Shown here piece by piece: positions 1-11,289 of a stretch of 16,039 nt of DNA (positions are counted from its first letter, which is position 1; the number at the start of each line of letters is the position of its first letter). The position numbers and the translations under genes are program-made. The DNA lies in IMG/VR virus record IMGVR_UViG_2681813230_000004; one strand, 5' to 3'. This DNA is from a virus (Duplodnaviria > Heunggongvirae > Uroviricota > Caudoviricetes). The notes under the pieces were generated by a model. That model was not told the DNA's origin and did no database searches. It saw nothing but the letters and a program-made list of their open reading frames with translations.

Positions 1-210
1 ATGACGGATGGCTGGCCGCTGTATGAATCCCGCCTGAAGGGAAAGCTGCACGTTATCAGCAAGCGTTACACTCAGCGCATTGAGCGACATAATCTGAATC
101 TGAGACAACATCTGGCAAGGCTGGGACGGAAGTTACTGTCGTTCTCAAAATCGGTGGAGCTGCATGACAAAGTCATCGGGCATTATCTGAACATAAAACA
201 CTATCAGTAA
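1..210 (+). CDS. insB: IS1 transposase InsB, C-terminal fragment (5' truncated by window edge)
   Basis: The 69-aa translation matches the InsB C-terminal region as I recall it. Confidence 0.85.
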
Positions 211-225
211 GTTGGAGTCATTACC
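1..225 (+). mobile_element. IS1 right end (partial; the window starts inside the element)
   Basis: ORF 1..210 matches the C-terminus of IS1 InsB (...[15 protein letters not shown]). The sequence ATCAGTAAGTTGGAGTCATTACC at 203..225 matches the 23-bp IS1 terminal inverted repeat from memory with one mismatch, and the insB stop lies inside it, as in IS1. Confidence 0.85.
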
Positions 226-279
226 GATTTTGGGGAGTAATATTTTGGTAAGGCTTCAAGGTTCATGCTCGTTCTCCAC

Positions 280-1329
280 TTACGCCAGTACGCCAATTGC
301 CAGCGCGCGATCGATAAAACGAAATATCAGCTCCAGTTGGGAGCCATACTTATCTTCAAATGCCACTGTATCCGTATGCAGCTCGTTGTGATGCTTTCTG
401 CACAAAGGCAACACAAAGAGATCATGTGCTTTTGTTCCCATTCCGCCCTGCCCGTGACCAATCAGATGATGCGGATCGTCGGCTGGCATACCGCAGCAAA
501 CACACGGCTGTGTCTTAACCCAACGTGTGTATTTCTCCTTAACCCAGCGGCGACGTTTAGGCAGCTTCATGAAAGATTCCGGAGACTCTGGATCAACGGT
601 GATGCTTACCACCGTCTTTTCCTGTGGTGATTTTTGTTGCTGGTGGGCGTAAGGCAACGGTGCAAGATTTTTTGTGCGTTGTTTCAATATGCTGGTGGCG
701 GTCTGCTCTCCCGGTACGATGTCGCTTTCGCGGTACACCGAGCAGATTTTTTCCGCTGGTAATCCCAGCGAACGACGCGATACAGCCTCAGGTAGTGCAT
801 CCACCACCTGATTGCAGACCGCCCACCAGGATAATTCAGCCAAAGATAATTCCCGCTCCTGCGTACCGCTTATTGCGTGACGGATGACGTCAATCACCCA
901 TGCTGTCAGATTTTGTTGAGCAAGCAGCTCCAGTGATTCCGATGTCTGGTCACGCAGTTGGTTGTCGCAGTGCCAGCACAACACCATTGCGCCGGTACCA
1001 TAACGGTGAATGACTGTTTCAGTGTGATGGTAATCGCCATTAGGCCACTGGCAGGATGTAACATGACGTAATAGCCAGTCGGACAATGCGCCAACGCCGC
1101 CAGCAGCACGAATCACCCGTTCGTTACTAAAAAACGGCAGCAATGTTTTGTCTTCCGCCAGCGGCTGGCGAACGGCAGGAACGACTCCGGATGGCAGATT
1201 ACGCATGCTTTTTGGTTCCGGTTCCACCAGCACTCGAGGATTATGAAATATCTGTATGGATTCACGGCCCGGCTTAAGGACCACCAGCCCAAGCTCAGGC
1301 ACCAGAACAGGTCTAAGTAATACCCGCAC
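280..1329 (-). CDS. ydfU: YdfU-like prophage protein with C-terminal DUF968/HNH-like Cys-His motif
   Basis: Long minus-strand ORF. The C-terminal segment CVCCGMPADDPHHLIGHGQGG...LPLCRKHHNELH is a Cys/His HNH-like motif (DUF968/Ref-like). Start placed at GTG 1329 (GGAGG 4 nt upstream, about 349 aa, the length I recall for K-12 YdfU); the ORF track's extended start at 1368 or ATG 1206 are alternatives. Confidence 0.6.
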   Translation of the reverse strand: MRVLLRPVLVPELGLVVLKPGRESIQIFHNPRVLVEPEPKSMRNLPSGVVPAVRQPLAEDKTLLPFFSNERVIRAAGGVGALSDWLLRHVTSCQWPNGDYHHTETVIHRYGTGAMVLCWHCDNQLRDQTSESLELLAQQNLTAWVIDVIRHAISGTQERELSLAELSWWAVCNQVVDALPEAVSRRSLGLPAEKICSVYRESDIVPGEQTATSILKQRTKNLAPLPYAHQQQKSPQEKTVVSITVDPESPESFMKLPKRRRWVKEKYTRWVKTQPCVCCGMPADDPHHLIGHGQGGMGTKAHDLFVLPLCRKHHNELHTDTVAFEDKYGSQLELIFRFIDRALAIGVLA

Positions 1330-1330
1330 G

Positions 1331-1609
1331 TTACCTCCAGATCCGTTGCTGGAAAGTGCGGGACGCACGTGGTGGGCGTTCGGAATAAGGCAGCCTGACA
1401 GAGATTATCCAGTGCCGATAGTCGAGACTGAGAGCTTTCTTAACCTCGAACCCGCGCCTGCGGTAAGAATGAATCAGCCATTCGGCCTGTTCTGCAGTGC
1501 ATGGAGGGTGCTGGAACCATTCAGACTTGAATGCGTGAGAATACCGCCCGTGCGTGCAGGCAAGAACGGGCGAATTATCAGAATTGTAATATTTTGCGTT
1601 GCGTGCCAT
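1331..1609 (-). CDS. hypothetical 92-aa protein
   Basis: ORF with GGAG about 8 nt upstream of its ATG. Its stop lies 1 nt before the ydfU GTG, suggesting coupling. No family recognised. Confidence 0.35.
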   Translation of the reverse strand: MARNAKYYNSDNSPVLACTHGRYSHAFKSEWFQHPPCTAEQAEWLIHSYRRRGFEVKKALSLDYRHWIISVRLPYSERPPRASRTFQQRIWR

Positions 1610-1675
1610 CGGTTTTCTCCGGTGGCACGGTGTTACTCAGCGGGAGTTCAGCCCCGCGCAAGATTGTAGATGAGT

Positions 1676-1927
1676 TTATTCTCCTGAAAAAGCAGAAAAG
1701 CCAGCTTTTATTCCGATCTCTTTCAATGCCTGTAATGAAGTGACAAACTCACCTTCGCGCAAGATAAATCCGTCCGTGACCCGAGCATCCACAAAATTAA
1801 TTAACGCAGCCCCATTCTTTCGCAAACACATAATGCGGTAATGACTAACAAGATTTCCATTTTCAACGCACACAGCATAGAGGCCATCTTCACAAAAAAT
1901 TTTACGCAGTTCTTCGATGTTCATCAT
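1676..1927 (-). CDS. rem: Rem (Qin prophage small protein, 83 aa)
   Basis: 83-aa ORF in the position of rem between ydfU and hokD; length matches K-12 Rem. Confidence 0.7.
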   Translation of the reverse strand: MMNIEELRKIFCEDGLYAVCVENGNLVSHYRIMCLRKNGAALINFVDARVTDGFILREGEFVTSLQALKEIGIKAGFSAFSGE

Positions 1928-2042
1928 CAGAATCCTTCCGGATAATTAGCTCTCCCCTTTAAGGGACCATCCCTCTTATCCCTGCGCGCTACTTAAGTAT
2001 TTTTGATTCTATTCCGGCACCGTCCAGAACTTCAAACGCGTT

Positions 2043-2076
2043 GAAAATAAAAACAAAAACCCGCCGAAGCGGGTTA
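2043..2076 (-). terminator. Rho-independent terminator of the relB-relE-hokD operon
   Basis: On the minus strand, an AACCCGC-TTCG-GCGGGTT hairpin (2058..2075) is followed by a T-rich tract (TTTTTGTTTTTATTTTC), about 70 nt downstream of the hokD stop. Confidence 0.6.
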
Positions 2077-2143
2077 AGTGCGGGTGCGTTGAGGATGCCT
2101 GCCACATCAGAGGTGGCGAGGGATTTCTCCCCCGCCGGGTCTC

Positions 2144-2299
2144 TTACTCCTCAGGTTCGTAAGCTGTGAAGACAGCGACCTCCGTCTGGCCGGTTCGGAT
2201 TCGTACCTCGCAGAGGTCTTTCCTCGTTACCAGTGCCGTCACTATGACGGTTAAACAGATGACGATCAGGGCGATTAACATCGCCTTTTGCTGCTTCAT
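2144..2299 (-). CDS. hokD: HokD (RelF) type I toxin, 51 aa
   Basis: Hand translation of the reverse complement gives MKQQKAMLIALIVICLTVIVTALVTRKDLCEVRIRTGQTEVAVFTAYEPEE, a Hok-family sequence. Below the ORF-track size cut-off. Confidence 0.85.
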   Translation of the reverse strand: MKQQKAMLIALIVICLTVIVTALVTRKDLCEVRIRTGQTEVAVFTAYEPEE

Positions 2300-2370
2300 A
2301 GCCTGCTTCTCCTGTCAACGCAAAGCAGAAGTGTCACCTTCGGTGCGAAACAGAGATGTCATGCTTTGGT

Positions 2371-2658
2371 TCAGAGAATGCGTTTGACCGCCTCGCTATA
2401 TACTTCCGAGCGTTCTCTTTTCCCAACAGAAATCACGAAAACGACAACTTTCTCGTCTATAACCTGGTATACAAGGCGATAGCCTGAAGACCGGAGCTTA
2501 ATCTTGTAACAATCAGGCATACCACGGAGCTTGTTTGCTTCAATCCGGGGTGACTCAAGTACTTCAACCAGCTTCTTTTTCAACTGTTCACGTACCGTCG
2601 AGCCCAGCTTTCGCCATTCCTTTAGTGCCCGCTCGTCAAAATCCAGAAAATACGCCAT
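2371..2658 (-). CDS. relE: RelE mRNA-interferase toxin (95 aa)
   Basis: Translation MAYFLDFDERALKEWRKLGSTVREQ...VISVGKRERSEVYSEAVKRIL matches RelE. Confidence 0.9.
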   Translation of the reverse strand: MAYFLDFDERALKEWRKLGSTVREQLKKKLVEVLESPRIEANKLRGMPDCYKIKLRSSGYRLVYQVIDEKVVVFVISVGKRERSEVYSEAVKRIL

Positions 2659-2897
2659 CAGAGTTCATCCAGCGTCACACGTACTGGCTTAGGATTACGA
2701 AGCCGTTCTTTCACTATCTCCACAAGTTCAGCATCTTCATCACTCAGGAGTGTCTGTTTGAACGGCAAGCGTTCATTGTCAGCGATATACTCGAGCATGA
2801 GACGAAGCGCTTCAGAAGGAGTTACACCCATTTTTTCAAGCGCGGCGTAAGAACGCGCTTTAAGTTCATCGTCAATACGCAGGTTAATGCTACCCAT
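2658..2897 (-). CDS. relB: RelB antitoxin (79 aa)
   Basis: Translation MGSINLRIDDELKARSYA...PKPVRVTLDEL matches RelB. Its stop overlaps the relE start by 1 nt. Confidence 0.9.
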   Translation of the reverse strand: MGSINLRIDDELKARSYAALEKMGVTPSEALRLMLEYIADNERLPFKQTLLSDEDAELVEIVKERLRNPKPVRVTLDEL

Positions 2898-2908
2898 GTC
2901 TTACACCT

Positions 2909-2934
2909 CTTGTAATTACAAATGTCATTACAAG
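2909..2934 (-). promoter_or_regulatory. relBE operator/promoter region (relO-like dyad repeats)
   Basis: CTTGTAATTACAAATGTCATTACAAG lies immediately upstream of relB and contains repeated TTGTAAT/ATTACAA half-sites. RelB/RelE autoregulation at such a site is established. Confidence 0.55.
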
Positions 2935-3227
2935 TATCGCACTACAACATGCTTAGGGCAAGTCACGAAGGAAGTCAGAAAGTAGTCGTAAGAACGGTGA
3001 TCACTGTCCGCTTTGTGCCAGGAGCAGCCATTGCTAAGTCCATCCTGTATTGTGCAGGTCAGCTCGTTTTTAAAGAGTCCGGCCATCATCTTACTGGTAC
3101 AGACACCATATACTTTGTGACGGTCAGGCTACATATGCACAACTCAACTTATTCATCTATTTTTTGCTTTAGCATGTCAGTGTTGCTTTCTCGTCGGCGG
3201 GTGAGCGGTGACCTGACCTGTCGATAA
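2922..3227 (+). CDS. ydfV: YdfV-like hypothetical protein (101 aa)
   Basis: 101-aa ORF between relB and flxA, the position and length of K-12 ydfV. Its start codon lies inside the relO dyad, so coding status is uncertain. Confidence 0.35.
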   Translation: MSLQVSHYNMLRASHEGSQKVVVRTVITVRFVPGAAIAKSILYCAGQLVFKESGHHLTGTDTIYFVTVRLHMHNSTYSSIFCFSMSVLLSRRRVSGDLTCR

Positions 3228-3379
3228 AGGAACGTAGCACGTTTTATGCAACACCCGCATGCGGCAGAAAATTATTGCCGAACGTTTACCCCTGTCAACA
3301 AGCTTTACTTTCTGAGGCGCGCCAGCCCGCGAGGAAAACAATCTGAACATCAAACAATTAATGACACAAGAAATACGAT

Positions 3380-3406
3380 TAAAGATTTTTTTGTGCATGC
3401 CGATAG
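3380..3406 (+). promoter_or_regulatory. sigma-28 (FliA)-type promoter of flxA
   Basis: TAAA (3380..3383), a 15-nt spacer, then GCCGATAG (3399..3406), against the consensus TAAA-N15-GCCGATAA. It sits about 24 nt upstream of the flxA ATG, which is preceded by AGGAG. Confidence 0.6.
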
Positions 3407-3429
3407 TGCTTTTTTAAAAGGAGAAATCT

Positions 3430-3762
3430 ATGTCTGTCACAATTCAGGGAAATACCTCAACCGTTATTTCAAACAACTCCGCCCCGGAAGGAACATCAGA
3501 AATAGCCAAAATCACAAGACAAATTCAGGTGCTGACTGAAAAGCTTGGGAAAATCTCATCGGAAGAGGGGATGACGACACAGCAGAAAAAAGAAATGGCT
3601 GCATTGGTACAGAAGCAAATTGAAAGCCTCAGGGCTCAACTGGAGCAGTTGTTAAGGCAGCAGGCAGAGAAAAAGAATAAAGACGCGACAGTTCAGCCTG
3701 ATAAAAAAGAAGAGAAAAAAGACGATACAAATACCGCTGGCACCATTGATATTTACGTCTAA
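3430..3762 (+). CDS. flxA: FlxA (FliA-regulated prophage protein, 110 aa)
   Basis: Translation MSVTIQGNTSTVISNNSAPEGTSEIAKITRQIQ...GTIDIYV matches FlxA. Confidence 0.85.
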   Translation: MSVTIQGNTSTVISNNSAPEGTSEIAKITRQIQVLTEKLGKISSEEGMTTQQKKEMAALVQKQIESLRAQLEQLLRQQAEKKNKDATVQPDKKEEKKDDTNTAGTIDIYV

Positions 3763-3776
3763 GTGACAGCCGTATT

Positions 3777-3799
3777 GTGGCCCTCATCGGGCCACTTTT
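3777..3799 (+). terminator. Rho-independent terminator after flxA
   Basis: GTGGCCC-TCATC-GGGCCAC hairpin followed by TTTT, starting 15 nt after the flxA stop. Confidence 0.6.
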
Positions 3800-4198
3800 C
3801 GCCATCAGCCTTTTCTTTAAAGACATATTATCTTTGTATCATTTCTGATAGTTAACATTACAAGATATAAGTAATGGACGCACTCCCAATTAGTCTATTT
3901 AAATCGCCACGAGTTTAACTGACAACCCATGATCAATTATGAATTGCAACTATTTCTGTAGTCACTTTTGTGGGGACAGTCCACAAAACTGCCAACTTCC
4001 GCTTCTTGCTCTTAGCGGACATTAGCATAGGCTATTTACCATAACGCCTCATTACGCGCACCGCCCAGACTGACTCAGCGCGTTTCTGGCATATCCCCGG
4101 TAAAACAAGTAACAAACCACCCGAAAATGAACACCAGAAACGCGACTTAAGAATCTACCCTATGAATGGATATGCACTCAACCGAATCGATCTTGGTT

Positions 4199-5540
4199 TC
4201 AATCTTTTTTATCGGGATCAGGCTTCTTTTTAGGTAACTTCGGGGGCTTAACTTGCTGATGACTTTGCGTTCGGCGCGTAAGCCAGGGATGGTCAGCTTT
4301 AGGTTTAACATAGTATTTTGAGCGTAAATCAATACGGGCATTATCCACTCGTTCATGGACACTCTTTTCATCATCCAGTGGTATAGGCTCCGGGCCATCA
4401 ACATACTTTTCCCAGCCCAGCGCTTTCCCGTCATACAGAACGTTAATTTCACCGTCAAAGTTCTCGCATACAGTAACAACCGAATGCCTAAGTCGATATC
4501 CCCGGCCCTCACTGCGTACCTGAAACGCACTGCTTTTGTACTGGAAAGTGAGATTTTTAGACAGAACGCGCTTCGCCTGTAGGCTGAAGATATAACCCAG
4601 TTCCTCTTCAGAATGGTGCACATCAAGATGAGCATTATCAGTAGTACGAGGCGACGTAGCGAACCGGTTGTTATAGGCTTCAATAAAGGTCGGCAACCAT
4701 GCATTTGCTGTTTCAATATCACTGATATTCTGAAGCCGCATTTCTTTGACCAGCCTGTCCTGTAGTGTCTGATTGGCGCGCTCTACCCGCCCTTTTGCCT
4801 GCGGGCTGTTGGCATGGATTGGCTCGATGCCCAGTGTCTTTATCGCACGAGTGAACTGGGTCAGCTCACCTTCCCGCTCTGGGTTATTTACCCTGAATAT
4901 ACTGTGTCTATCAGAGTAGAGAGCGAGCGGTACGCCATGATCATTAAGGTAACCCCGGAGGGTTTCCATGTAAGCCCGGGTTGTTTCAGCAGGCACAAAA
5001 CGCAACGCCATCAACGCACTGGTGGCATCATCAATGAAAACGATCAGTGTACATCTGGGGCCTCGATTTTCAAACCAGTCATGAGGTGAGCCATCAATCT
5101 GGATCAGTTCACCGTAAGATGGTCGTCGCATGCGGCGTTGATATATACGGGCAATTTTACGACGGCGTTCACGCCATACCCCCCTCTTCTATCATCCACT
5201 TTCTGAGAGTTTCAACGGATAAAGATAAACCGTGTATCTCGCGCAATTTTTCGCACGCAAACGTAGGTCCAAAATCAGCGTAACGGCCTTTGAGGAGTGA
5301 AATTACTGTTGCTCTGAATTCAGTAGAAAAGGAATTATTAGGACGCTTTCCACGTCGGTGGGAAACCAGACCAGAAGGCCCTTCATTTCTATACCGTTGC
5401 ACCAGACGTTTAACCTGCCGAATAGAAATGCCAATGCGTGCCGCAGCTTGTTCCTGAGTAATATGTCGATTAATTGACTCCTGAATAATCTGAAGTCGGT
5501 GGAGTTCCTTATGACTCATCGTAACAGTTTCTTTGGTCAT
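4199..5540 (-). pseudogene. rve (DDE integrase-core) transposase-like gene, IS481-like, split into a 123-aa HTH part (5169..5540) and a 310-aa catalytic part (4199..5131)
   Basis: The N-terminal ORF has an HTH-like segment (ITQEQAAARIGISIRQVKRLVQRY). The C-terminal ORF has integrase-core signatures (LYSDRHSIF; PQAKGRVERANQTLQDRL). Both are on the minus strand in frames offset by +1, and the offset sits at a G6 run (plus-strand C6 at 5179..5184). Removing one G would give a single ORF of about 440 aa. Confidence 0.65.
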
Positions 5541-5874
5541 GAAAAATCCCCCAGAGAATTGTCTGGGGACATTTTAGAATGGTTCAAAGGGGACATTACA
5601 GCTTGGTGTTAACAATAGCCTGCTTCTCCTTGCCTTTCGGCACGTAAGAGGCTAACCTACATGTGTCTGGCATGAAATTGGCCTCAGATTAATGTTAAGC
5701 GTCTTGCAGGACGCGTAATGTTAACTGGGGCTTTTCTCTACCTGCCGTTGGTGTTCGTGCCCGAGGCAGATAGCCTCAAGCACCCGCAGTCATTCTACTT
5801 AACTAAGATTTCCCCGCAAACCGTTTTTGTCCAGCACAGTAAATATCCAACTAAACCAATGGAGTTCGCTGTAT

Positions 5875-6054
5875 TTACCGCCAGTATTCAATGCACATGA
5901 CCGCCATGAACACCCCTAAAAAAAGGGCATTTATATATCCAAATATTAATATCAAAACATCAACTTTTTCCATATACCTTGCTGTGAAGATGATGGGCAT
6001 ACATGATGCGAACAACCAGAACGCAACAAACAAAAACTGCAATGCGTTTTTCAT
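5875..6054 (-). CDS. hypothetical small membrane protein (59 aa, two predicted hydrophobic helices)
   Basis: ATG at 6054 is preceded by a perfect AGGAGG 4 nt upstream. Translation MKNALQFLFVAFWLFASCMPIIFTARYMEKVDVLILIFGYINALFLGVFMAVMCIEYWR is strongly hydrophobic. It lies in a visibly AT-rich stretch. Confidence 0.4.
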   Translation of the reverse strand: MKNALQFLFVAFWLFASCMPIIFTARYMEKVDVLILIFGYINALFLGVFMAVMCIEYWR

Positions 6055-7206
6055 TATTCCTCCTACAATCAATGTGCAATTACATTTAAACACACCTCAA
6101 TTTGGCCGGACATATAAATATCTAAACCAGAAAAAATCACTTACATAGCGTTACAAACTCTTTAGTCTAAAGGTTCATCGTAAAACATTCCCCATACTTA
6201 TCAGTCCGTTCCGCGCCAGGTAGCTCATTGCCTTATCTGGCAACCTGTAATCAGGTTTCCGCTTTTTCAGTTGGCTGGTCGTTTAACCGACATAGTTAAC
6301 CCATTAATCTAGTTGCCGGATGTTGGTGGATTTTCGCGTTTTAGTTGTTCATAAAAGTGCACAGCTTTAACCAATTCTTCTGATGTAACCGGGACTGGTG
6401 AGGCAGTGAATAAGGCCTGAATTTGATAGTTCGGCCTGTCGTTACAATCCTCTTTTTTCGGTACATATTTCCAGTCACCAGACCACTACTTCCCCTGAAA
6501 GTCCGTAACGCCTTTTTTCACGTAGCGATATCGCCATGTCACTGGTTTTGCTTGCCCCGCCGTTTCATGCCCTTCCTGATAATTAATCTCGCTCATTCAT
6601 CGCCCCACTCATCACAATATGCTTCGACCGGAGTTTTTCCCGCTTCATAGTCATCACGCTAGGATTCGACATCAGCAGCACTTCCACCGCGTAACTCACC
6701 ATAGTCCATTAATAGTTCATCCCGCTCTTCAAAACTGATGTTATATTTAGCTGAACAAAAATCAGCCACTTTGTTCTTCCTCATCGTCTTTTATTTCGTG
6801 GTATGAGTAATTGCAGTAGTTAAAGAAAATTTCTTATGCTCCGTCATGAATTTCATCAGGTGTTGCGTCATCGTCCACTTCGAATACATCCTCAAAATCT
6901 CCACCAGCTATTCCCGTTTCAATAATAATTTTGAACTTTCGCATTTCACTACCGCCCTTTCGGGCGGCCTCCTGATGTTCTGAGGGTGCAGAAATCCATC
7001 CGGTTAAGGATTAAGTTTTATTTACAGAACTGAATTTAATTATTCAGATATACGTATCTGTAACCTTACGAATCTACTCACTGGATGCCTCTTTCATAAA
7101 AATAATCCAGTGGGTTTTATCGTTTTTTCCCTGTTCGTTGACAGATAACAGGCTTTCTATCTGTCAGTGCCAGAATCTGGCTTACCGGTATTTGCGTTTC
7201 ATTCCA

Positions 7207-7563
7207 TTAAAAAATCAGAACGCCGTGCGGCCTCAACACCCGAAAAGCTTCTTTAAATCTCTGTCGCAAATCATCACGCCAGGCATCTTTATTCAGCCGT
7301 CCATATTTCTTTCCCATCCAGGCGTTATCACCAACACGCTCAAGATGCGGAGGGTCTAATACAACCATCGAAAAAGATGCGTCTGCAAATGATAATGCAC
7401 GAAAATCTGCGATAATGTCAGGGCTGATAATCAAGCGTCTCCCATTGCGTAATGTGTATCCTTCTTTTCTGATATCGCTAAATATCGCCCGTTCGTCAGA
7501 CTTATCGAACCAGAACATGCGGCTGCCACAGCACATATCAAGAATGGTTGCCGGTGCACTCAC
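7207..7563 (-). CDS. SAM-dependent methyltransferase core, probably a remnant (118 aa)
   Basis: Motif I-like ILDMCCGS near the N-terminus and an amino-MTase motif IV-like VVLDPPH about 60 aa later. Too short for a complete Rossmann-fold MTase. GTG start; an in-frame stop lies 6 codons upstream. Confidence 0.45.
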   Translation of the reverse strand: MSAPATILDMCCGSRMFWFDKSDERAIFSDIRKEGYTLRNGRRLIISPDIIADFRALSFADASFSMVVLDPPHLERVGDNAWMGKKYGRLNKDAWRDDLRQRFKEAFRVLRPHGVLIF

Positions 7564-8988: not shown

Positions 8989-9490
8989 AATTCCATCCAG
9001 CTTTTTGTTGGTATTGCTGTCGATACGCAAGCTTGAAAGCAATTGCTTTTTCTATAAGTTCGTCAGTTTCACGATCCACTACGGCAGGATCAGCAAAAAG
9101 CAGTCCGGACTCCACCACATCGCCATATTCTTTGTTTAACCCGGCGATCATGCACGTGATGCTTTTTCCGTCAGTAATTTCACGATACAACCTGAAATCA
9201 CTAATCCGGATAGCCTCCATAATCGCAGGCACTAGCGCCGTGAACTTTTCACGCTTATCCCTGGTGTCGATAGCCTTCCAGCGTTCGAATATCTTCACTC
9301 GATTAACACCAAGCGCTCGCTGATCAACCGCGCCACCTTCATCTGTGACACGCTGAACATCGATGTTCGGGCGCTCTTTCAAAGCCCAGAATGCTTCAGT
9401 GATTAATATCGTCGCCTGCTCCTGTGTCATTCCTGGTCGACATATCCAGGCATCCAGAGCCTCACGAGCCTGTTCAGGAGTGATTTTCAT
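8969..9490 (-). CDS. hypothetical phage early protein (173 aa), in the cII/YdaT position
   Basis: ORF immediately downstream of the dicC-like gene and upstream of the replication gene, same strand. No motif recognised. Confidence 0.45.
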   Translation of the reverse strand: MKITPEQAREALDAWICRPGMTQEQATILITEAFWALKERPNIDVQRVTDEGGAVDQRALGVNRVKIFERWKAIDTRDKREKFTALVPAIMEAIRISDFRLYREITDGKSITCMIAGLNKEYGDVVESGLLFADPAVVDRETDELIEKAIAFKLAYRQQYQQKAGWNYEPSFC

Positions 9491-9701
9491 TGTTCAACCG
9501 CCCCGCCCGCTTCGTCTTACGATATTCATCATAAACTTTGGGATCATACTGAAGCTCCCCGCCAGATGCCTCCTGTAGACGCATCGCGCGACCTTCAGGA
9601 ACCAGTATCCCCCAAGCAGCAACACTTGCCAGCCTCACTCCTGCGGCATTGGCAAGCTTTGTTTTGCTGCCAAAAAAAGTAATTGCGTCAACTTTAAGCA
9701 T
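9474..9701 (-). CDS. dicC: DicC-like Cro-type regulator
   Basis: Small ORF divergent from dicA. The C-terminal sequence ...VPEGRAMRLQEASGGELQYDPKVYDEYRK... resembles DicC/YdaS-type Cro proteins. ATG at 9701 is preceded by GAGGGGG; the ORF-track start at 9704 is a TTG. Confidence 0.7.
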   Translation of the reverse strand: MLKVDAITFFGSKTKLANAAGVRLASVAAWGILVPEGRAMRLQEASGGELQYDPKVYDEYRKTKRAGRLNNENHS

Positions 9702-9714
9702 CAAATCCCCCTCT

Positions 9715-9732
9715 TGTTAGACTTTTCTAACA
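9715..9732. promoter_or_regulatory. operator, perfect 18-bp dyad TGTTAGACTTTTCTAACA, in the dicC-dicA intergenic region
   Basis: Perfect palindrome overlapping the dicC ribosome-binding region. A related half-site, TTAGAATTACCTAAC, lies at 9766..9780 just upstream of the dicA ATG. Confidence 0.55.
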
Positions 9733-9781
9733 TTATTGTGCGCGGGATACCTAAGTCAAGAAAAATTAGAATTACCTAACT

Positions 9782-10189
9782 ATGGATACAAGAACCCTGG
9801 GCCAGCGAGTTCTGGCGCGACGAAAAGAATTACGCTTAACACAACGAGAAGCCGCGCGCCTCGCTGGAGTTGCTCACGTCACAATTTCACAATGGGAAAG
9901 AGACGAAACCCAGCCAGTCGGAAAACGATTGTTTGCTTTAGCGGATGCTCTGAAGTGCTCACCTACATGGCTAATGTTTGGTGACGAAGACAAGGCACCA
10001 GTGCCTGCACAAGAACTTCATGTGGAAACAGAGCTAACTCCCAACCACAAAGAATTGATCGAATTATTCGATGCTCTTCCATCTTCCGAGCAGGAAGCCT
10101 TGCTGTCTGAAATGCGCGCAAGAGTAGAAAACTTCAACAAACTCTTCGAAGAAATGCTTAAAGCGCGTAAAAATAAATCAATAAAATAA
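9782..10189 (+). CDS. dicA: DicA-family repressor (HTH_XRE, 135 aa)
   Basis: The segment LTQREAARLAGVAHVTISQWER is an XRE-type HTH. Length, divergent arrangement with dicC, and position upstream of ydfA match DicA. Confidence 0.8.
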   Translation: MDTRTLGQRVLARRKELRLTQREAARLAGVAHVTISQWERDETQPVGKRLFALADALKCSPTWLMFGDEDKAPVPAQELHVETELTPNHKELIELFDALPSSEQEALLSEMRARVENFNKLFEEMLKARKNKSIK

Positions 10190-10225
10190 CATTCTTTTCA
10201 AGTGATTAGTTGCGCCCACCCTTTT

Positions 10226-10279
10226 TGTTAGATCAATCTAACAAAAAACACTTGCCTCTCATGTTAGGTTATTCTAAAT
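10226..10279. promoter_or_regulatory. two further operators of the same family in the dicB-operon promoter region
   Basis: TGTTAGATCAATCTAACA (10226..10243, perfect dyad) and TGTTAGGTTATTCTAAAT (10262..10279, imperfect), between the dicA stop and ydfA. Confidence 0.5.
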
Positions 10280-10357
10280 TATTTTCCATCAAGACACCGC
10301 ACGGTGTTCTCAGCAAACAGTTCCGCTACCCCGGCGTTAAGGGGAAATGAGGTCAGC

Positions 10358-10513
10358 ATGGATACTATCGATCTTGGCAACAACGAATCTCTGGTGTACG
10401 GCGTGTTTCCAAACCAGGACGGCACGTTCACCGCAATGACGTATACCAAAAGCAAAACGTTTAAAACCGAATCTGGAGCGCGTCGCTGGCTGGAAAGAAA
10501 TTCAGGTGGGTGA
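10358..10513 (+). CDS. ydfA: YdfA (51 aa)
   Basis: MDTIDLGNNESLVYGVFPNQDGTFTAMTYTKSKTFKTESGARRWLERNSGG from the internal ATG at 10358, which has GAGGT upstream. The ORF track lists a longer upstream start. Confidence 0.8.
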   Translation: MDTIDLGNNESLVYGVFPNQDGTFTAMTYTKSKTFKTESGARRWLERNSGG

Positions 10514-10891: not shown

Positions 10892-11231
10892 TAGCTAACC
10901 AACGAAGCTAAGGTTGGTAATTAAGGAGTTCTCCACGGGTGAGGTGGAGTGCGTGCGCCGGACACGGGTGAGCATCCGGCACTGACAGTTTACTGAAAGG
11001 ATATTTCCCTGAAAAGTCAGACCATAACGCGAAAGCGCACGGCGAGGTAGCTGGTTCATAGATAGCCTGTCGTTAAATTTTCGTCGACCGTGCGCTTCCG
11101 GTTGTGGCAACCCGCGAAATGGCGCGGCGGTAAGTATGGCGGGGTTATTCCTTCCCCGTTGAGGACACCGGGTTGTCAGGTTGACCATACGCTTAAGTGA
11201 CAACCCCGCTGCAACGCCCTCTGTTATCAAT

Positions 11232-11289
11232 TTTCTGGTGACGTTTGGCGGTATCAGTTTTACTCCGTGACTGCTCTGCCGCCCTTTTT
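11232..11289 (+). ncRNA. dicF: DicF small regulatory RNA (ftsZ-targeting sRNA)
   Basis: TTTCTGGTGACGTTTGGCGGTATCAGTTTTACTCCGTGACTGCTCTGCCGCCC followed by TTTTT matches the DicF sequence from memory, in the expected position between ydfC and dicB. Confidence 0.8.

Follow-up and report, generated by a model that had tools for sequence, protein, structure and literature searches.

Repeated TGTTAG-N6-CTAACA dyads as very likely operators of a DicA-type immunity switch in a Qin-type prophage

The question raised by this locus is why copies of an 18-bp dyad, TGTTAG-N6-CTAACA, flank a single repressor gene, and which proteins would read them. The window, which is the whole 16,039-bp stretch of DNA analysed (IMG/VR record IMGVR_UViG_2681813230_000004), comes from E. 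coli 07-4299 and belongs to a Qin-like prophage. Sequence comparison indicates that the dyads very likely serve as operators for an immunity switch of P22 type carried by a defective Qin-type prophage, where a DicA-family repressor, and probably DicC as well, would read them. The design of this switch is already documented for K-12, and the window dyads mostly re-derive known prophage control.

Gene order is the same in the window and in K-12: rem, relBE, dicC, dicA, ydfABC, dicF and dicB, with rspAB adjoining. Both a divergent gene for a P22_Cro-type DicC and the downstream ydfABC-dicF-dicB operon are present, and ydfA, ydfB, ydfC and dicB are annotated in a RefSeq record identical to the window (Table 1). 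554/5,426 complete E. coli genomes covered at least 80% of a 1.2-kb query. This frequency bears on how widely the dicB/dicF division inhibitors stay silenced by the window version of the switch.

Table 1. Coordinates of the features discussed; positions are those of the window, and promoters and operators are predictions.
Feature	Position	Strand	Sequence	Remarks
rem, antirepressor	1676..1927	-		Intact ORF and RefSeq annotation
dicC-like cro gene, 75 aa	9474..9701	-		ORF and RefSeq CDS
Divergent immunity block versus K-12	9600..10280			Sliding identity against K-12-type locus L002
dicC Shine-Dalgarno stretch	9706..9714	-	AGAGGGGGA	Read from sequence; abuts first dyad
Perfect dyad; Oc-type operator	9715..9732		TGTTAGACTTTTCTAACA	0 mismatches; spacer ACTTTT; about -7 to +11 of predicted dicC promoter
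dicC promoter, predicted	9732..9759	-		-35 TTGACT (9759-9754), 16-bp spacer, -10 AATAAT (9737-9732)
Oa-like element	9764..9781		AATTAGAATTACCTAACT	3 mismatches; halves AATTAG and CTAACT, spacer AATTAC
Candidate dicA -10	9767..9772	+	TAGAAT	Inferred from sequence; 9 nt before ATG
DicA-family repressor, 135 aa	9782..10189	+		N-terminal HTH_3 domain related to P22 C2
Perfect dyad; distal dicBp operator	10226..10243		TGTTAGATCAATCTAACA	0 mismatches; spacer ATCAAT; about -62 to -45, immediately upstream of -35
dicBp-type promoter, predicted	10252..10280	+		-35 TTGCCT (10252-10257), 17-bp spacer, -10 TAAATT (10275-10280)
Imperfect dyad; proximal dicBp operator	10262..10279		TGTTAGGTTATTCTAAAT	2 mismatches, both in right half; halves TGTTAG and CTAAAT, spacer GTTATT; fills promoter spacer and overlaps -10, about -26 to -9
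DicF RNA	11233..11284			Rfam match

The repressor gene had been called dicA in the initial annotation, which was correct at the level of the subfamily. The protein (WP_000381212.1) matched NCBIfam NF007257 (DicA) over its full length with 224.7 bits (cut-off 101) and Pfam HTH_3 with 54.2 bits. The gene is not K-12 dicA itself, its product being a 57% identical allele in a swapped immunity block. Among solved structures the best match is the N-terminal domain of P22 C2 (E 1e-18), a domain also solved with operator DNA. A Pfam search of the repressor returned only helix-turn-helix families and no Peptidase_S24 or LexA-type cleavage domain. The literature describes no Ala-Gly cleavage site and no mitomycin C induction, with relief by Rem instead (PMC10448788). 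DicC is 86% identical to K-12 DicC and matched Pfam P22_Cro with 45.9 bits and NCBIfam DicC with 165.8 bits (cut-off 130). When the locus was scanned against its K-12-type counterpart, identity fell to 45-80% per 40-bp bin within the block at about 9600-10280, while the flanks were 93-100% identical. The block contains the DicC helix-turn-helix codons, all four dyads and dicA, and is one exchangeable module, swapped relative to K-12.

The two perfect dyads and the imperfect copy at 10262-10279 lie, to the base, where they were first reported. The related half-site placed at 9766-9780 also exists, and its span was revised to a full three-mismatch dyad at 9764-9781. Two perfect matches occur in the window, compared with none in 200 dinucleotide-preserving shuffles. 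With up to two mismatches allowed, 3 matches were observed against 0.56 expected, and 4/200 shuffles reached 3. With up to three mismatches, 8 were observed against 5.8 expected, so that 9764-9781 is not significant from sequence alone. A weight matrix was then derived from 35 operators at other loci, leaving out any identical to the window. It ranked the four dyads 1-4 among 16,022 window positions, with scores of 25.6 bits (9715-9732), 25.4 bits (10226-10243), 15.4 bits (10262-10279) and 11.3 bits (9764-9781). The mean shuffle maximum was 8.2 bits, and these scores were reached by 0, 0, 7 and 25 of 200 shuffles, respectively. All four dyads are confined to 565 bp around one gene.

The motif's occurrence elsewhere had been named as a check. 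IMG/VR stretches with TTGTTAG-N6-CTAACAA were compared with stretches carrying a composition-matched control dyad, TGTTTAG-N6-CTAAACA. Among the matches listed, a DicA-family gene lay 39-67 bp away in 43/120 stretches with the motif and adjoined the control dyad in 0/120, which points to a specific association. The other 77/120 motif stretches among the matches listed had no adjoining DicA gene, because a 14-base pattern gives a chance background in a very large collection.

Promoter geometry was examined next to each dyad. The dicC promoter was the only sigma-70 consensus match in 9400-10500, agreeing at 10/12 positions in the consensus scan, with a start predicted near 9725. The last base of its -10 coincides with the first base of the dyad (9732), and the Oc-type dyad overlaps the predicted dicC -10. 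Overlap with the dicC ribosome-binding region, as originally proposed for 9715-9732, was not borne out: the Shine-Dalgarno stretch occupies 9706-9714, adjacent to the dyad without overlapping it. What matters for function is the dyad's overlap with the dicC promoter, at its -10 and start. The window and K-12 dicC promoters have a matching layout, and K-12 Oc (TGTTAGTCATAACTAACA) occupies the position equivalent to 9715-9732. In K-12 the promoter was mapped by 5'RACE and its -10 is overlapped by Oc (Yun 2012, PMC3441716). K-12 Oc, given as TTGTTAGTCATAACTAACAA, confers DicA-dependent repression in vivo, which a single A-to-C half-site change (CTAACA to CTCACA) abolishes (PMC3441716). Reg-Seq also finds a DicA site at K-12 dicC (PMC7567609).

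On the other side of dicA, the dicBp-type promoter matches the consensus at 8/12 positions, below the scan threshold, and was hence not flagged. Its start is predicted near 10288. CTTGCC or CTTGAC and TAAATT or TAATCT are kept 17 bp apart in most allele types. The K-12 equivalent of the distal site is a two-mismatch copy at the same position. Nearly every TGTTAG-type allele has CTAAAT or CTAATC as the right half of the proximal site, and 10262-10279 is imperfect because this half doubles as the dicBp -10 (CTAAAT contains the TAAAT of TAAATT). DicA represses dicBp 22-fold in K-12, and Rem was demonstrated there to relieve this repression (Ragunathan and Vanderpool 2023, PMC10448788). The Reg-Seq authors rated the K-12 dicBp DicA site as low-evidence with its binding location unknown (PMC7567609, 2020), so the two dicBp operators rest on sequence and comparison. 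The main text of a transcription factor binding compendium does not mention DicA (PMC12059191). The window points to a likely position for a DicA-type repressor on the dicB-operon promoter, and its distal site, being a perfect dyad, would be a cleaner footprinting substrate than that of K-12. Repeated dyads of 17-18 bp overlapping early promoters are present on both sides of the repressor gene.

The dyad positions are kept across 126 related loci. Half-sites are invariant among loci with alike repressor helix-turn-helix sequences while spacers drift, and half-sites change as the helix-turn-helix changes. Information content was calculated from 22-31 unique sequences per site, representing five protein types (56-72% identical). 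It was 1.98 bits for Oc half-sites, 1.05 for the spacer and 1.25 for flanks; 1.91, 0.83 and 1.08, respectively, for the distal dicBp site (31 unique sequences); and 1.79, 1.17 and 1.26 for the proximal site. 14/14 helix-turn-helix variants with 'TQR' in helix 2 and 'HV(T/S)(I/V)SQWE' in helix 3 use TGTTAG-N6-CTAACA, and 2/2 'SQAALGK' variants use CCTTAG-N6-CTAAG(G/A). The 'ISLWES' variants have TGTTGAG or ATTGAG and the 'SVFKWE' variants have TAAC-N4-GTTA. Site location is identical across all of these groups. Many of the comparative sequences are close relatives, so they represent fewer independent lineages than the counts suggest. Together with promoter geometry, the K-12 comparison and the published K-12 experiments, this covariation bears out the original proposal that DicA-type operators control dicC and the ydfABC-dicF-dicB promoter.

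The fourth element, at 9764-9781, is probably a weak operator and/or the dicA core promoter, combining the dicA -10 and start with a site preferred by DicC. We see an even chance that it is a core promoter with a leaderless start and a preferred DicC site, analogous to OR3, and not a DicA operator, which would leave only three DicA operators. The element abuts the dicA ATG, which has no Shine-Dalgarno sequence and is of leaderless type, with transcription predicted to begin around 9779-9781. It contains the -10-like TAGAAT, and a TAnnnT hexamer (TAGAAT, TAGCAT, TAAGAT or TATATT) recurs at about the same distance from the ATG in every allele type inspected by eye. Yun 2012 saw no obvious dicA promoter in K-12, where neither Oa nor Om bound DicA in vivo (PMC3441716). 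The element is strongly conserved across allele types. It is nearly constant in types with different Oc (TGTTAG versus CCTTAG), and the DicC helix-turn-helix is identical in these two types, which differ only in the outer operator bases. It also retains TTAG...CTAA, the core in the motif obtained by DicC ChIP, its three mismatches put it at chance level by sequence alone, and DicC represses dicA 48-84-fold (PMC11430063). Against this, the right half CTAACT has 5/6 bases of the DicA half-site, and the element is the fourth-best matrix match in the window. In TAAC-N4-GTTA types it becomes TAACTTATATTA, tracking the operator of its own type. Weak sites often need cooperative binding, which the single-site assay of Yun would miss.

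Could the dyads instead be sites of a host regulator, such as the TetR-family protein YjdC (DicD)? YjdC was enriched at K-12 dicABC by ChIP-qPCR (PMC9283627). Regulation by a host protein would leave it unexplained that half-sites change along with the helix-turn-helix of the prophage repressor across alleles and species, and that the sites move inside the exchangeable immunity block, and DicA dependence has been demonstrated in K-12 (PMC3441716). We consider this explanation very unlikely. It is extremely unlikely that the dyads act as RNA hairpins, either as a dicA terminator at 10226-10243 or as structure in the dicC 5'-UTR, and not as protein-binding DNA. A 6-bp stem is possible for each dyad, 10226-10243 sits 37 nt past the dicA stop codon, and most of 9715-9732 would be transcribed into the dicC leader. 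However, the stems are A/T-rich, the scan called no terminator-like site at the dyads, and 10226-10243 has a T-run before it and an A-run after it, the reverse of an intrinsic terminator. Half-sites show no variation or compensatory changes within a specificity group and change with the helix-turn-helix between groups, which is the signature of protein recognition, and the effect of point mutations in K-12 Oc depends on DicA (PMC3441716). The terminator scan and this conservation pattern led us to discard the hairpin reading. Chance matches in A/T-rich intergenic DNA have virtually no prospect of explaining the repeats, the chance-level three-mismatch class notwithstanding, given the shuffles, the weight-matrix scan and the conserved positions.

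With the dyads taken as operators, a repressor dimer on 9715-9732 would cover the -10 and start of the strong dicC promoter and turn off the dicC-ydaT-replication operon. Dimers on 10262-10279 and 10226-10243 would shut the ydfABC-dicF-dicB promoter and keep the division inhibitors silent. DicC would read the dyads through the inner TTAG/CTAA core. In K-12, ChIP-seq gave one inferred DicC site on each side of dicA with the motif TT(A/C/T)G...C(G/A/T)AA (PMC11430063), which equals the inner core of the dyads. The element at 9764-9781, on the probable dicA -10 and start, would be the likely spot where DicC, and perhaps excess DicA, lowers dicA expression. Relief would be expected from the Rem antirepressor or from a flip of the DicA/DicC switch, the repressor having no LexA-type cleavage domain. 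It is only in K-12 that DicA has been shown to act through Oc and to repress dicC and dicBp, that Rem is shown to relieve repression and that DicC is shown to occupy sites flanking dicA (PMC3441716, PMC10448788, PMC11430063). For the window we infer that the 57% identical allele binds and that its sites cooperate, and likewise where transcription starts and what 9764-9781 does.

The comparative set also yields testable ideas on repressor specificity. We offer tentatively, and with some doubt, the idea that DicA-family members form a natural array of immunity specificities, readable from a simple code of core, outer bases and spacer. The inner core TTAG/CTAA may be what DicC and the conserved recognition helix both read. 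The outer two bases seem to depend on residue 22 in helix 2, with Arg going with TG, and Ala, Asn or Ser with CC or TA. Repressors of K-12 type seem to need a YYATRR spacer, and those of window type to accept any A/T-rich spacer. If this is true, alleles sharing only 56-72% identity would each repress the dicB operons of the others, and homoimmunity would extend across prophage "types", and the spacer alone could still distinguish the K-12 and window types.

A middle operator was also considered. The candidate Om at 9739-9756, 24-25 bp from Oc and Oa, has a right half, CTAAG, that appeared to track allele type. As a site supported by sequence it was rejected on an independent weight-matrix score of -8.7 bits (rank 111), so the lambda-like picture of "three operators per side", which papers citing Bejar et al. 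1988 (Mol Gen Genet) credit to that work for K-12, is not borne out. The Oc-Oa centre distance is 49 bp. The dicBp side yielded only two sites, with a separation of 36 bp (35 bp for K-12 and locus L007), and no third site upstream of 10226. Clusters of three adjacent operators at about 23-25 bp spacing were not found.

Downstream of dicBp, the dicB-operon leader is conserved and has stems. Its structure, which includes hairpin 2 at 10329-10344, was derived from single-sequence folds plus covariance-model realignment; RNAalifold did not recover the stems from a MAFFT alignment, their register being shifted by indels. The leader matched no Rfam family and no annotated phage feature and has no second copy in the window. 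The HK022 immunity region gave no similar core and no covariance-model match. An HK022 put-like or nut-like antiterminator was considered, and a relationship with put was not supported by these searches.

Among known systems, K-12 Qin is the closest. The proposed alignment with its locus gave matching TGTTAG/CTAACA half-sites at all four equivalent positions, despite 57% repressor identity. Its Oc likewise overlaps the dicC -10, and its downstream operon and leader match those of the window. The window has two perfect dyads, Oc and the distal dicBp site, against one in K-12, Oc. K-12-type operators keep a YYATRR spacer that the window allele lacks, the dicC promoter spacer is 17 bp in K-12 and 16 bp in the window, and ydaT and replication genes, lost from K-12, persist in the window prophage.

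P22 immC is similar in that the N-terminal domain of the repressor is ∼45% identical to P22 C2, its best PDB match, DicC belongs to the P22_Cro family, and 18-bp dyads flank the repressor gene on both sides. Structures available for comparison are 1ADR, 2R1J and 3JXB. The P22 operator is ATTTAAGATATCTTAAAT, read by Val33. Val33 and Gln37 of the C2 recognition helix are conserved in the window repressor alignment. The half-site differs, and two sites per side are recognisable in the window versus three in P22. The window repressor (135 aa) has an unrelated, short C-terminal domain without Peptidase_S24, so induction cannot follow the RecA route.

As in the window, the repressor and cro promoters of lambda OR/OL diverge and have operators in common, the strong site lying on the lytic promoter and the weak one on that of the repressor; a further operator cluster lies at the leftward early promoter, and the switch is bistable. 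Its operators are unrelated in sequence, and the middle operator is not recognisable in the window. The centre of Oc falls near -56 relative to the presumed dicA start and not at the CI-activating -42 (PRM), so any self-activation must differ. Finally, Rac racR-ydaS-ydaT differs from the window in its member of the repressor family and in its operators. It has a CI-like repressor gene divergent from a cro-like gene followed by ydaT, an arrangement that its authors call analogous to dicA/dicC (PMC11879457).

TGTTAG-N6-CTAACA occurs without a mismatch at the Oc-type and distal dicBp sites and with two mismatches at the proximal dicBp site (dicBp being the promoter of ydfABC-dicF-dicB). The three copies that the initial annotation had placed around dicA were thus exact to the base. 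The window holds two perfect copies, compared with none in 200 dinucleotide-preserving shuffles. Three copies with at most two mismatches were seen where 0.56 were expected. Copies with up to three mismatches are at background (8 seen, 5.8 expected), so a fourth element, the Oa-like element, is insufficient on sequence alone. A weight matrix was built from the sites of other loci, excluding those identical to the window's. It placed the four sites at ranks 1-4 among 16,022 window positions, and gave the middle operator position (Om) no support at -8.7 bits. Two recognisable sites only are present at dicBp. Among the first 120 IMG/VR matches listed for TTGTTAG-N6-CTAACAA, 43 have a DicA-family gene at a distance of 39-67 bp, compared with 0 of the first 120 listed for a composition-matched control dyad. 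A weak dyad-like site, TGTCAGGTTGACCATACG, scores 2.5 bits, which is not significant, and lies ∼40 bp upstream of DicF. K-12 ChIP-seq places a weak DicC binding region upstream of dicF (PMC11430063).

Features of the dicC-dicA-dicBp region and of other parts of the window
Feature	Coordinates	Strand	Remarks
rem	1676-1927		intact
hokD (annotated)	∼2144-2299		
Rfam sok antitoxin RNA match	5614-5785	minus	99.8 bits
dicC-like gene	9474-9701	minus	75 aa
Divergent block	∼9600-10280		
dicC/dicA gap	between 9701 and 9782		80 bp
dicC Shine-Dalgarno, AGAGGGGGA	9706-9714	minus	abuts Oc-type dyad, no overlap
Oc-type dyad	9715-9732		spacer 9721-9726
dicC promoter	9759 to 9732	minus	TTGACT-16-AATAAT
Om position	9739-9756		
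Oa-like element	9764-9781		three mismatches
-10-like TAGAAT	9767-9772		9 nt upstream of dicA ATG
DicA-family repressor gene	9782-10189	plus	135 aa
Helix-2 residues 21-23 (QRE)	9842-9850		
dicA/ydfA gap			168 bp; ydfA begins at 10358
Distal dicBp dyad	10226-10243		spacer 10232-10237
dicBp candidate -35, TTGCCT	10252-10257	plus	17 bp from -10
Proximal dicBp dyad	10262-10279		spacer 10268-10273
dicBp candidate -10, TAAATT	10275-10280	plus	
dicBp-ydfA leader	10287-10352	plus	
Leader hairpin 1	10293-10308		
Leader hairpin 2	10329-10344		
Weak dyad-like site	11174-11191		
DicF	11233-11284		

The dicC promoter is the sole consensus sigma-70 promoter in 9400-10500, and the last base of its -10 coincides with the first base of the Oc-type dyad. 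With the -10's second base set to -11, following the K-12 5'RACE mapping (PMC3441716), the predicted dicC start falls near 9725, so the dyad would span ∼-7 to +11. The first dyad had been assigned to the dicC ribosome-binding region; it overlaps the core promoter instead, and the Shine-Dalgarno is only adjacent. At dicBp the hexamers match 8/12 consensus positions, under the promoter-scan threshold, and both are kept across most allele types. The perfect distal dyad lies directly upstream of the -35 (∼-62 to -45). The proximal dyad occupies the spacer, and its right half, CTAAAT, has five bases in common with the -10. This copy had been called imperfect, correctly, but the imperfection is constrained: its two mismatches arise because the right half serves both operator and -10. 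Nearly every TGTTAG-type allele has either CTAAAT or CTAATC as this right half.

The Oa-like element contains a -10-like hexamer, and no Shine-Dalgarno sequence precedes the dicA ATG. By eye, all allele types examined have a TAnnnT hexamer ∼9-10 nt upstream of this codon. This arrangement suggests that dicA mRNA is leaderless, like lambda cI mRNA from PRM. The related element noted earlier at this position is present, but at chance level and ambiguous in role: it is about as likely to be a weak operator for DicA as a promoter combined with a DicC site.

Comparison loci were gathered from GTDB genomes (15 loci), IMG/VR (80 loci), phage records and the motif scan, yielding 126 DicA-family ORFs (30 distinct proteins, 20 helix-turn-helix variants). 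Dyad positions are constant across them. The comparison with K-12 that the initial annotation proposed found the dyads at the same places in both types: one ∼67-68 nt ahead of the dicA ATG, and two past the stop at ∼36-37 and 71-73 nt. Information content per column was calculated for five TGTTAG-sharing protein types that are 56-72% identical. Half-sites, spacer and flanks carry 1.98, 1.05 and 1.25 bits at Oc, 1.91, 0.83 and 1.08 at the distal dicBp site, and 1.79, 1.17 and 1.26 at the proximal site. When the helix-turn-helix switches, the half-site switches at the same place. Fourteen variants with 'TQR' in helix 2 and 'HV(T/S)(I/V)SQWE' in helix 3 accompany TGTTAG-N6-CTAACA. Two with 'SQAALGK' in helix 2 and the window's helix 3 (VAHVTISQWE) accompany CCTTAG-N6-CTAAG(G/A). 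'ISLWES' types have TGTTGAG or ATTGAG, and 'SVFKWE' types have TAAC-N4-GTTA. Because half-sites are fixed within a group, spacers drift and the sites change in concert with the protein, the dyads appear to behave as protein-recognised operators; RNA stems or chance repeats would not show this pattern. In three GTDB records (L009, L012 and L013), whose titles name MAGs of Collinsella, Bacillota and Veillonella, the dicA locus resembles that of E. coli and is accompanied by the ydfA leader of enterobacteria; L009 is essentially K-12-type. These contigs are probably mis-binned Enterobacteriaceae, not true hosts.

The window matches E. coli isolate 07-4299 (NZ_CP027462.1) at 100% identity and sits there in a Qin-like defective prophage with the order rem, hokD, relBE ... 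ydaT-like, dicC-like, HTH repressor, ydfA, ydfB, ydfC, dicB, ydfD, exonuclease, xis, int, rspAB. At least 80% of a 1.2-kb query is covered in 554/5,426 complete E. coli genomes. K-12-type loci align with only ∼58% of the queried stretch at ∼90% identity. In NCBIfam, the repressor passes the curated cut-off of the DicA subfamily and DicC that of the DicC subfamily; Pfam assigns them to HTH_3 and P22_Cro, respectively. The closest solved relative of the repressor is the P22 C2 N-terminal domain, including DNA complexes. The gene named dicA does belong to the DicA subfamily, but is a divergent allele, 57% identical to K-12 DicA; DicC is 86% identical. Sliding identity to K-12 is 45-80% inside the divergent block and 93-100% outside. 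Its edges are sharp, at the DicC helix-turn-helix codons and the dicBp -10. All four dyads lie within the block, which appears to behave as an exchangeable immunity module whose regulators and operators move together, and it looks like a cassette swapped by recombination. The prophage is defective, yet has eroded less than Qin of K-12. To the left of its replication genes (∼4469-7518), the identical RefSeq record shows an ISEsa1-family transposase that is truncated, along with several genes that carry frameshifts or are interrupted. The sok match is distant from hokD and has no evident intact ORF of Hok size next to it; it may be a second hok/sok locus that has decayed.

In K-12, Oc is TTGTTAGTCATAACTAACAA; it overlaps the -10 of the mapped dicC start and gives DicA-dependent repression in vivo that one half-site A-to-C change eliminates (Yun et al., PMC3441716). 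DicA is also required for its own transcription, and the authors' assay showed no DicA binding to Om or Oa, which had been predicted from sequence (PMC3441716). Reg-Seq recovers the DicA site at dicC and calls the dicB site low-evidence and of unknown location (PMC7567609). DicA represses dicBp 22-fold, the antirepressor Rem relieves this, there is no SOS induction, and switching depends on DicC, the Cro-like partner (Ragunathan and Vanderpool, PMC10448788). From ChIP-seq of DicC, a preprint infers that dicA has a DicC site on either side, the motif being TT(A/C/T)G...C(G/A/T)AA (PMC11430063). This is exactly the inner core of the dyads. Our comparison agrees: the DicC helix-turn-helix is identical in TGTTAG and CCTTAG types, so DicC probably reads the core common to both. 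Promoter geometry, covariation and the K-12 literature support the proposed control of dicC and dicBp, and the dyads are very probably operators of the DicA-family repressor.

Three further features are modest leads, not discoveries. The identity of helix-2 residue 22 follows that of dyad positions 1-2, the two outer bases of the operator: Arg accompanies TG in all 14 TGTTAG and both TGTTGAG variants, and Ala, Asn or Ser accompanies CC or TA. It is a candidate specificity determinant, seen in few independent lineages. Second, K-12-type operators (3321-3338, 3832-3849 and 3867-3884 of L002, the K-12-type locus, and relatives) all keep a YYATRR spacer (TCATAA, TCATGA, CCATGG, CTATAG, CCATAA and others) with divergent flanks, and window-type operators have free A/T-rich spacers. 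Because the spacer rule differs by type, the two might be heteroimmune despite the same half-sites. Third, the leader between dicBp and ydfA is conserved far above the operators and kept across immunity types. It has two hairpins with an invariant GTTCCG linker between them, and the hairpin 2 loop is GGCGWTAA. Each of the 46 loci matched by a covariance model has exactly one copy, and HK022 has none. In hairpin 2, 94% of cells are paired and 3/4 pairs change on both sides (CCCC/GGGG, GCCG/CGGC, GCCT/AGGC); hairpin 1 is weaker (76%). The covariation score, on an alignment fitted to the model, was 0.182 compared with 0.072 in shuffles (0/500 reaching it). Folding energy is unexceptional, and the leader matches no Rfam family or annotated phage feature. 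Antitermination, processing and translational signals are possibilities.

Overall, a P22-like switch is proposed. A repressor dimer at the Oc-type site would block the dicC promoter, and dimers at the proximal and distal sites would block dicBp, silencing ydfABC-dicF-dicB. The weak element at the dicA start would be a probable target of DicC, and possibly of excess DicA. Self-activation in K-12 may amount to clearing RNA polymerase off the strong dicC promoter, since the polymerase footprint there would extend over the full 80-bp gap and with it the presumed dicA promoter. Relative to the presumed start of dicA, Oc is centred near -56, which is no classical activator position. Induction would depend on Rem or on the switch flipping, and not on RecA cleavage. 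Compared with the textbook picture, a middle operator is not supported, dicBp has two recognisable sites only, and the repressor has no cleavage domain by Pfam. These departures belong to the whole DicA family, not to the window alone.
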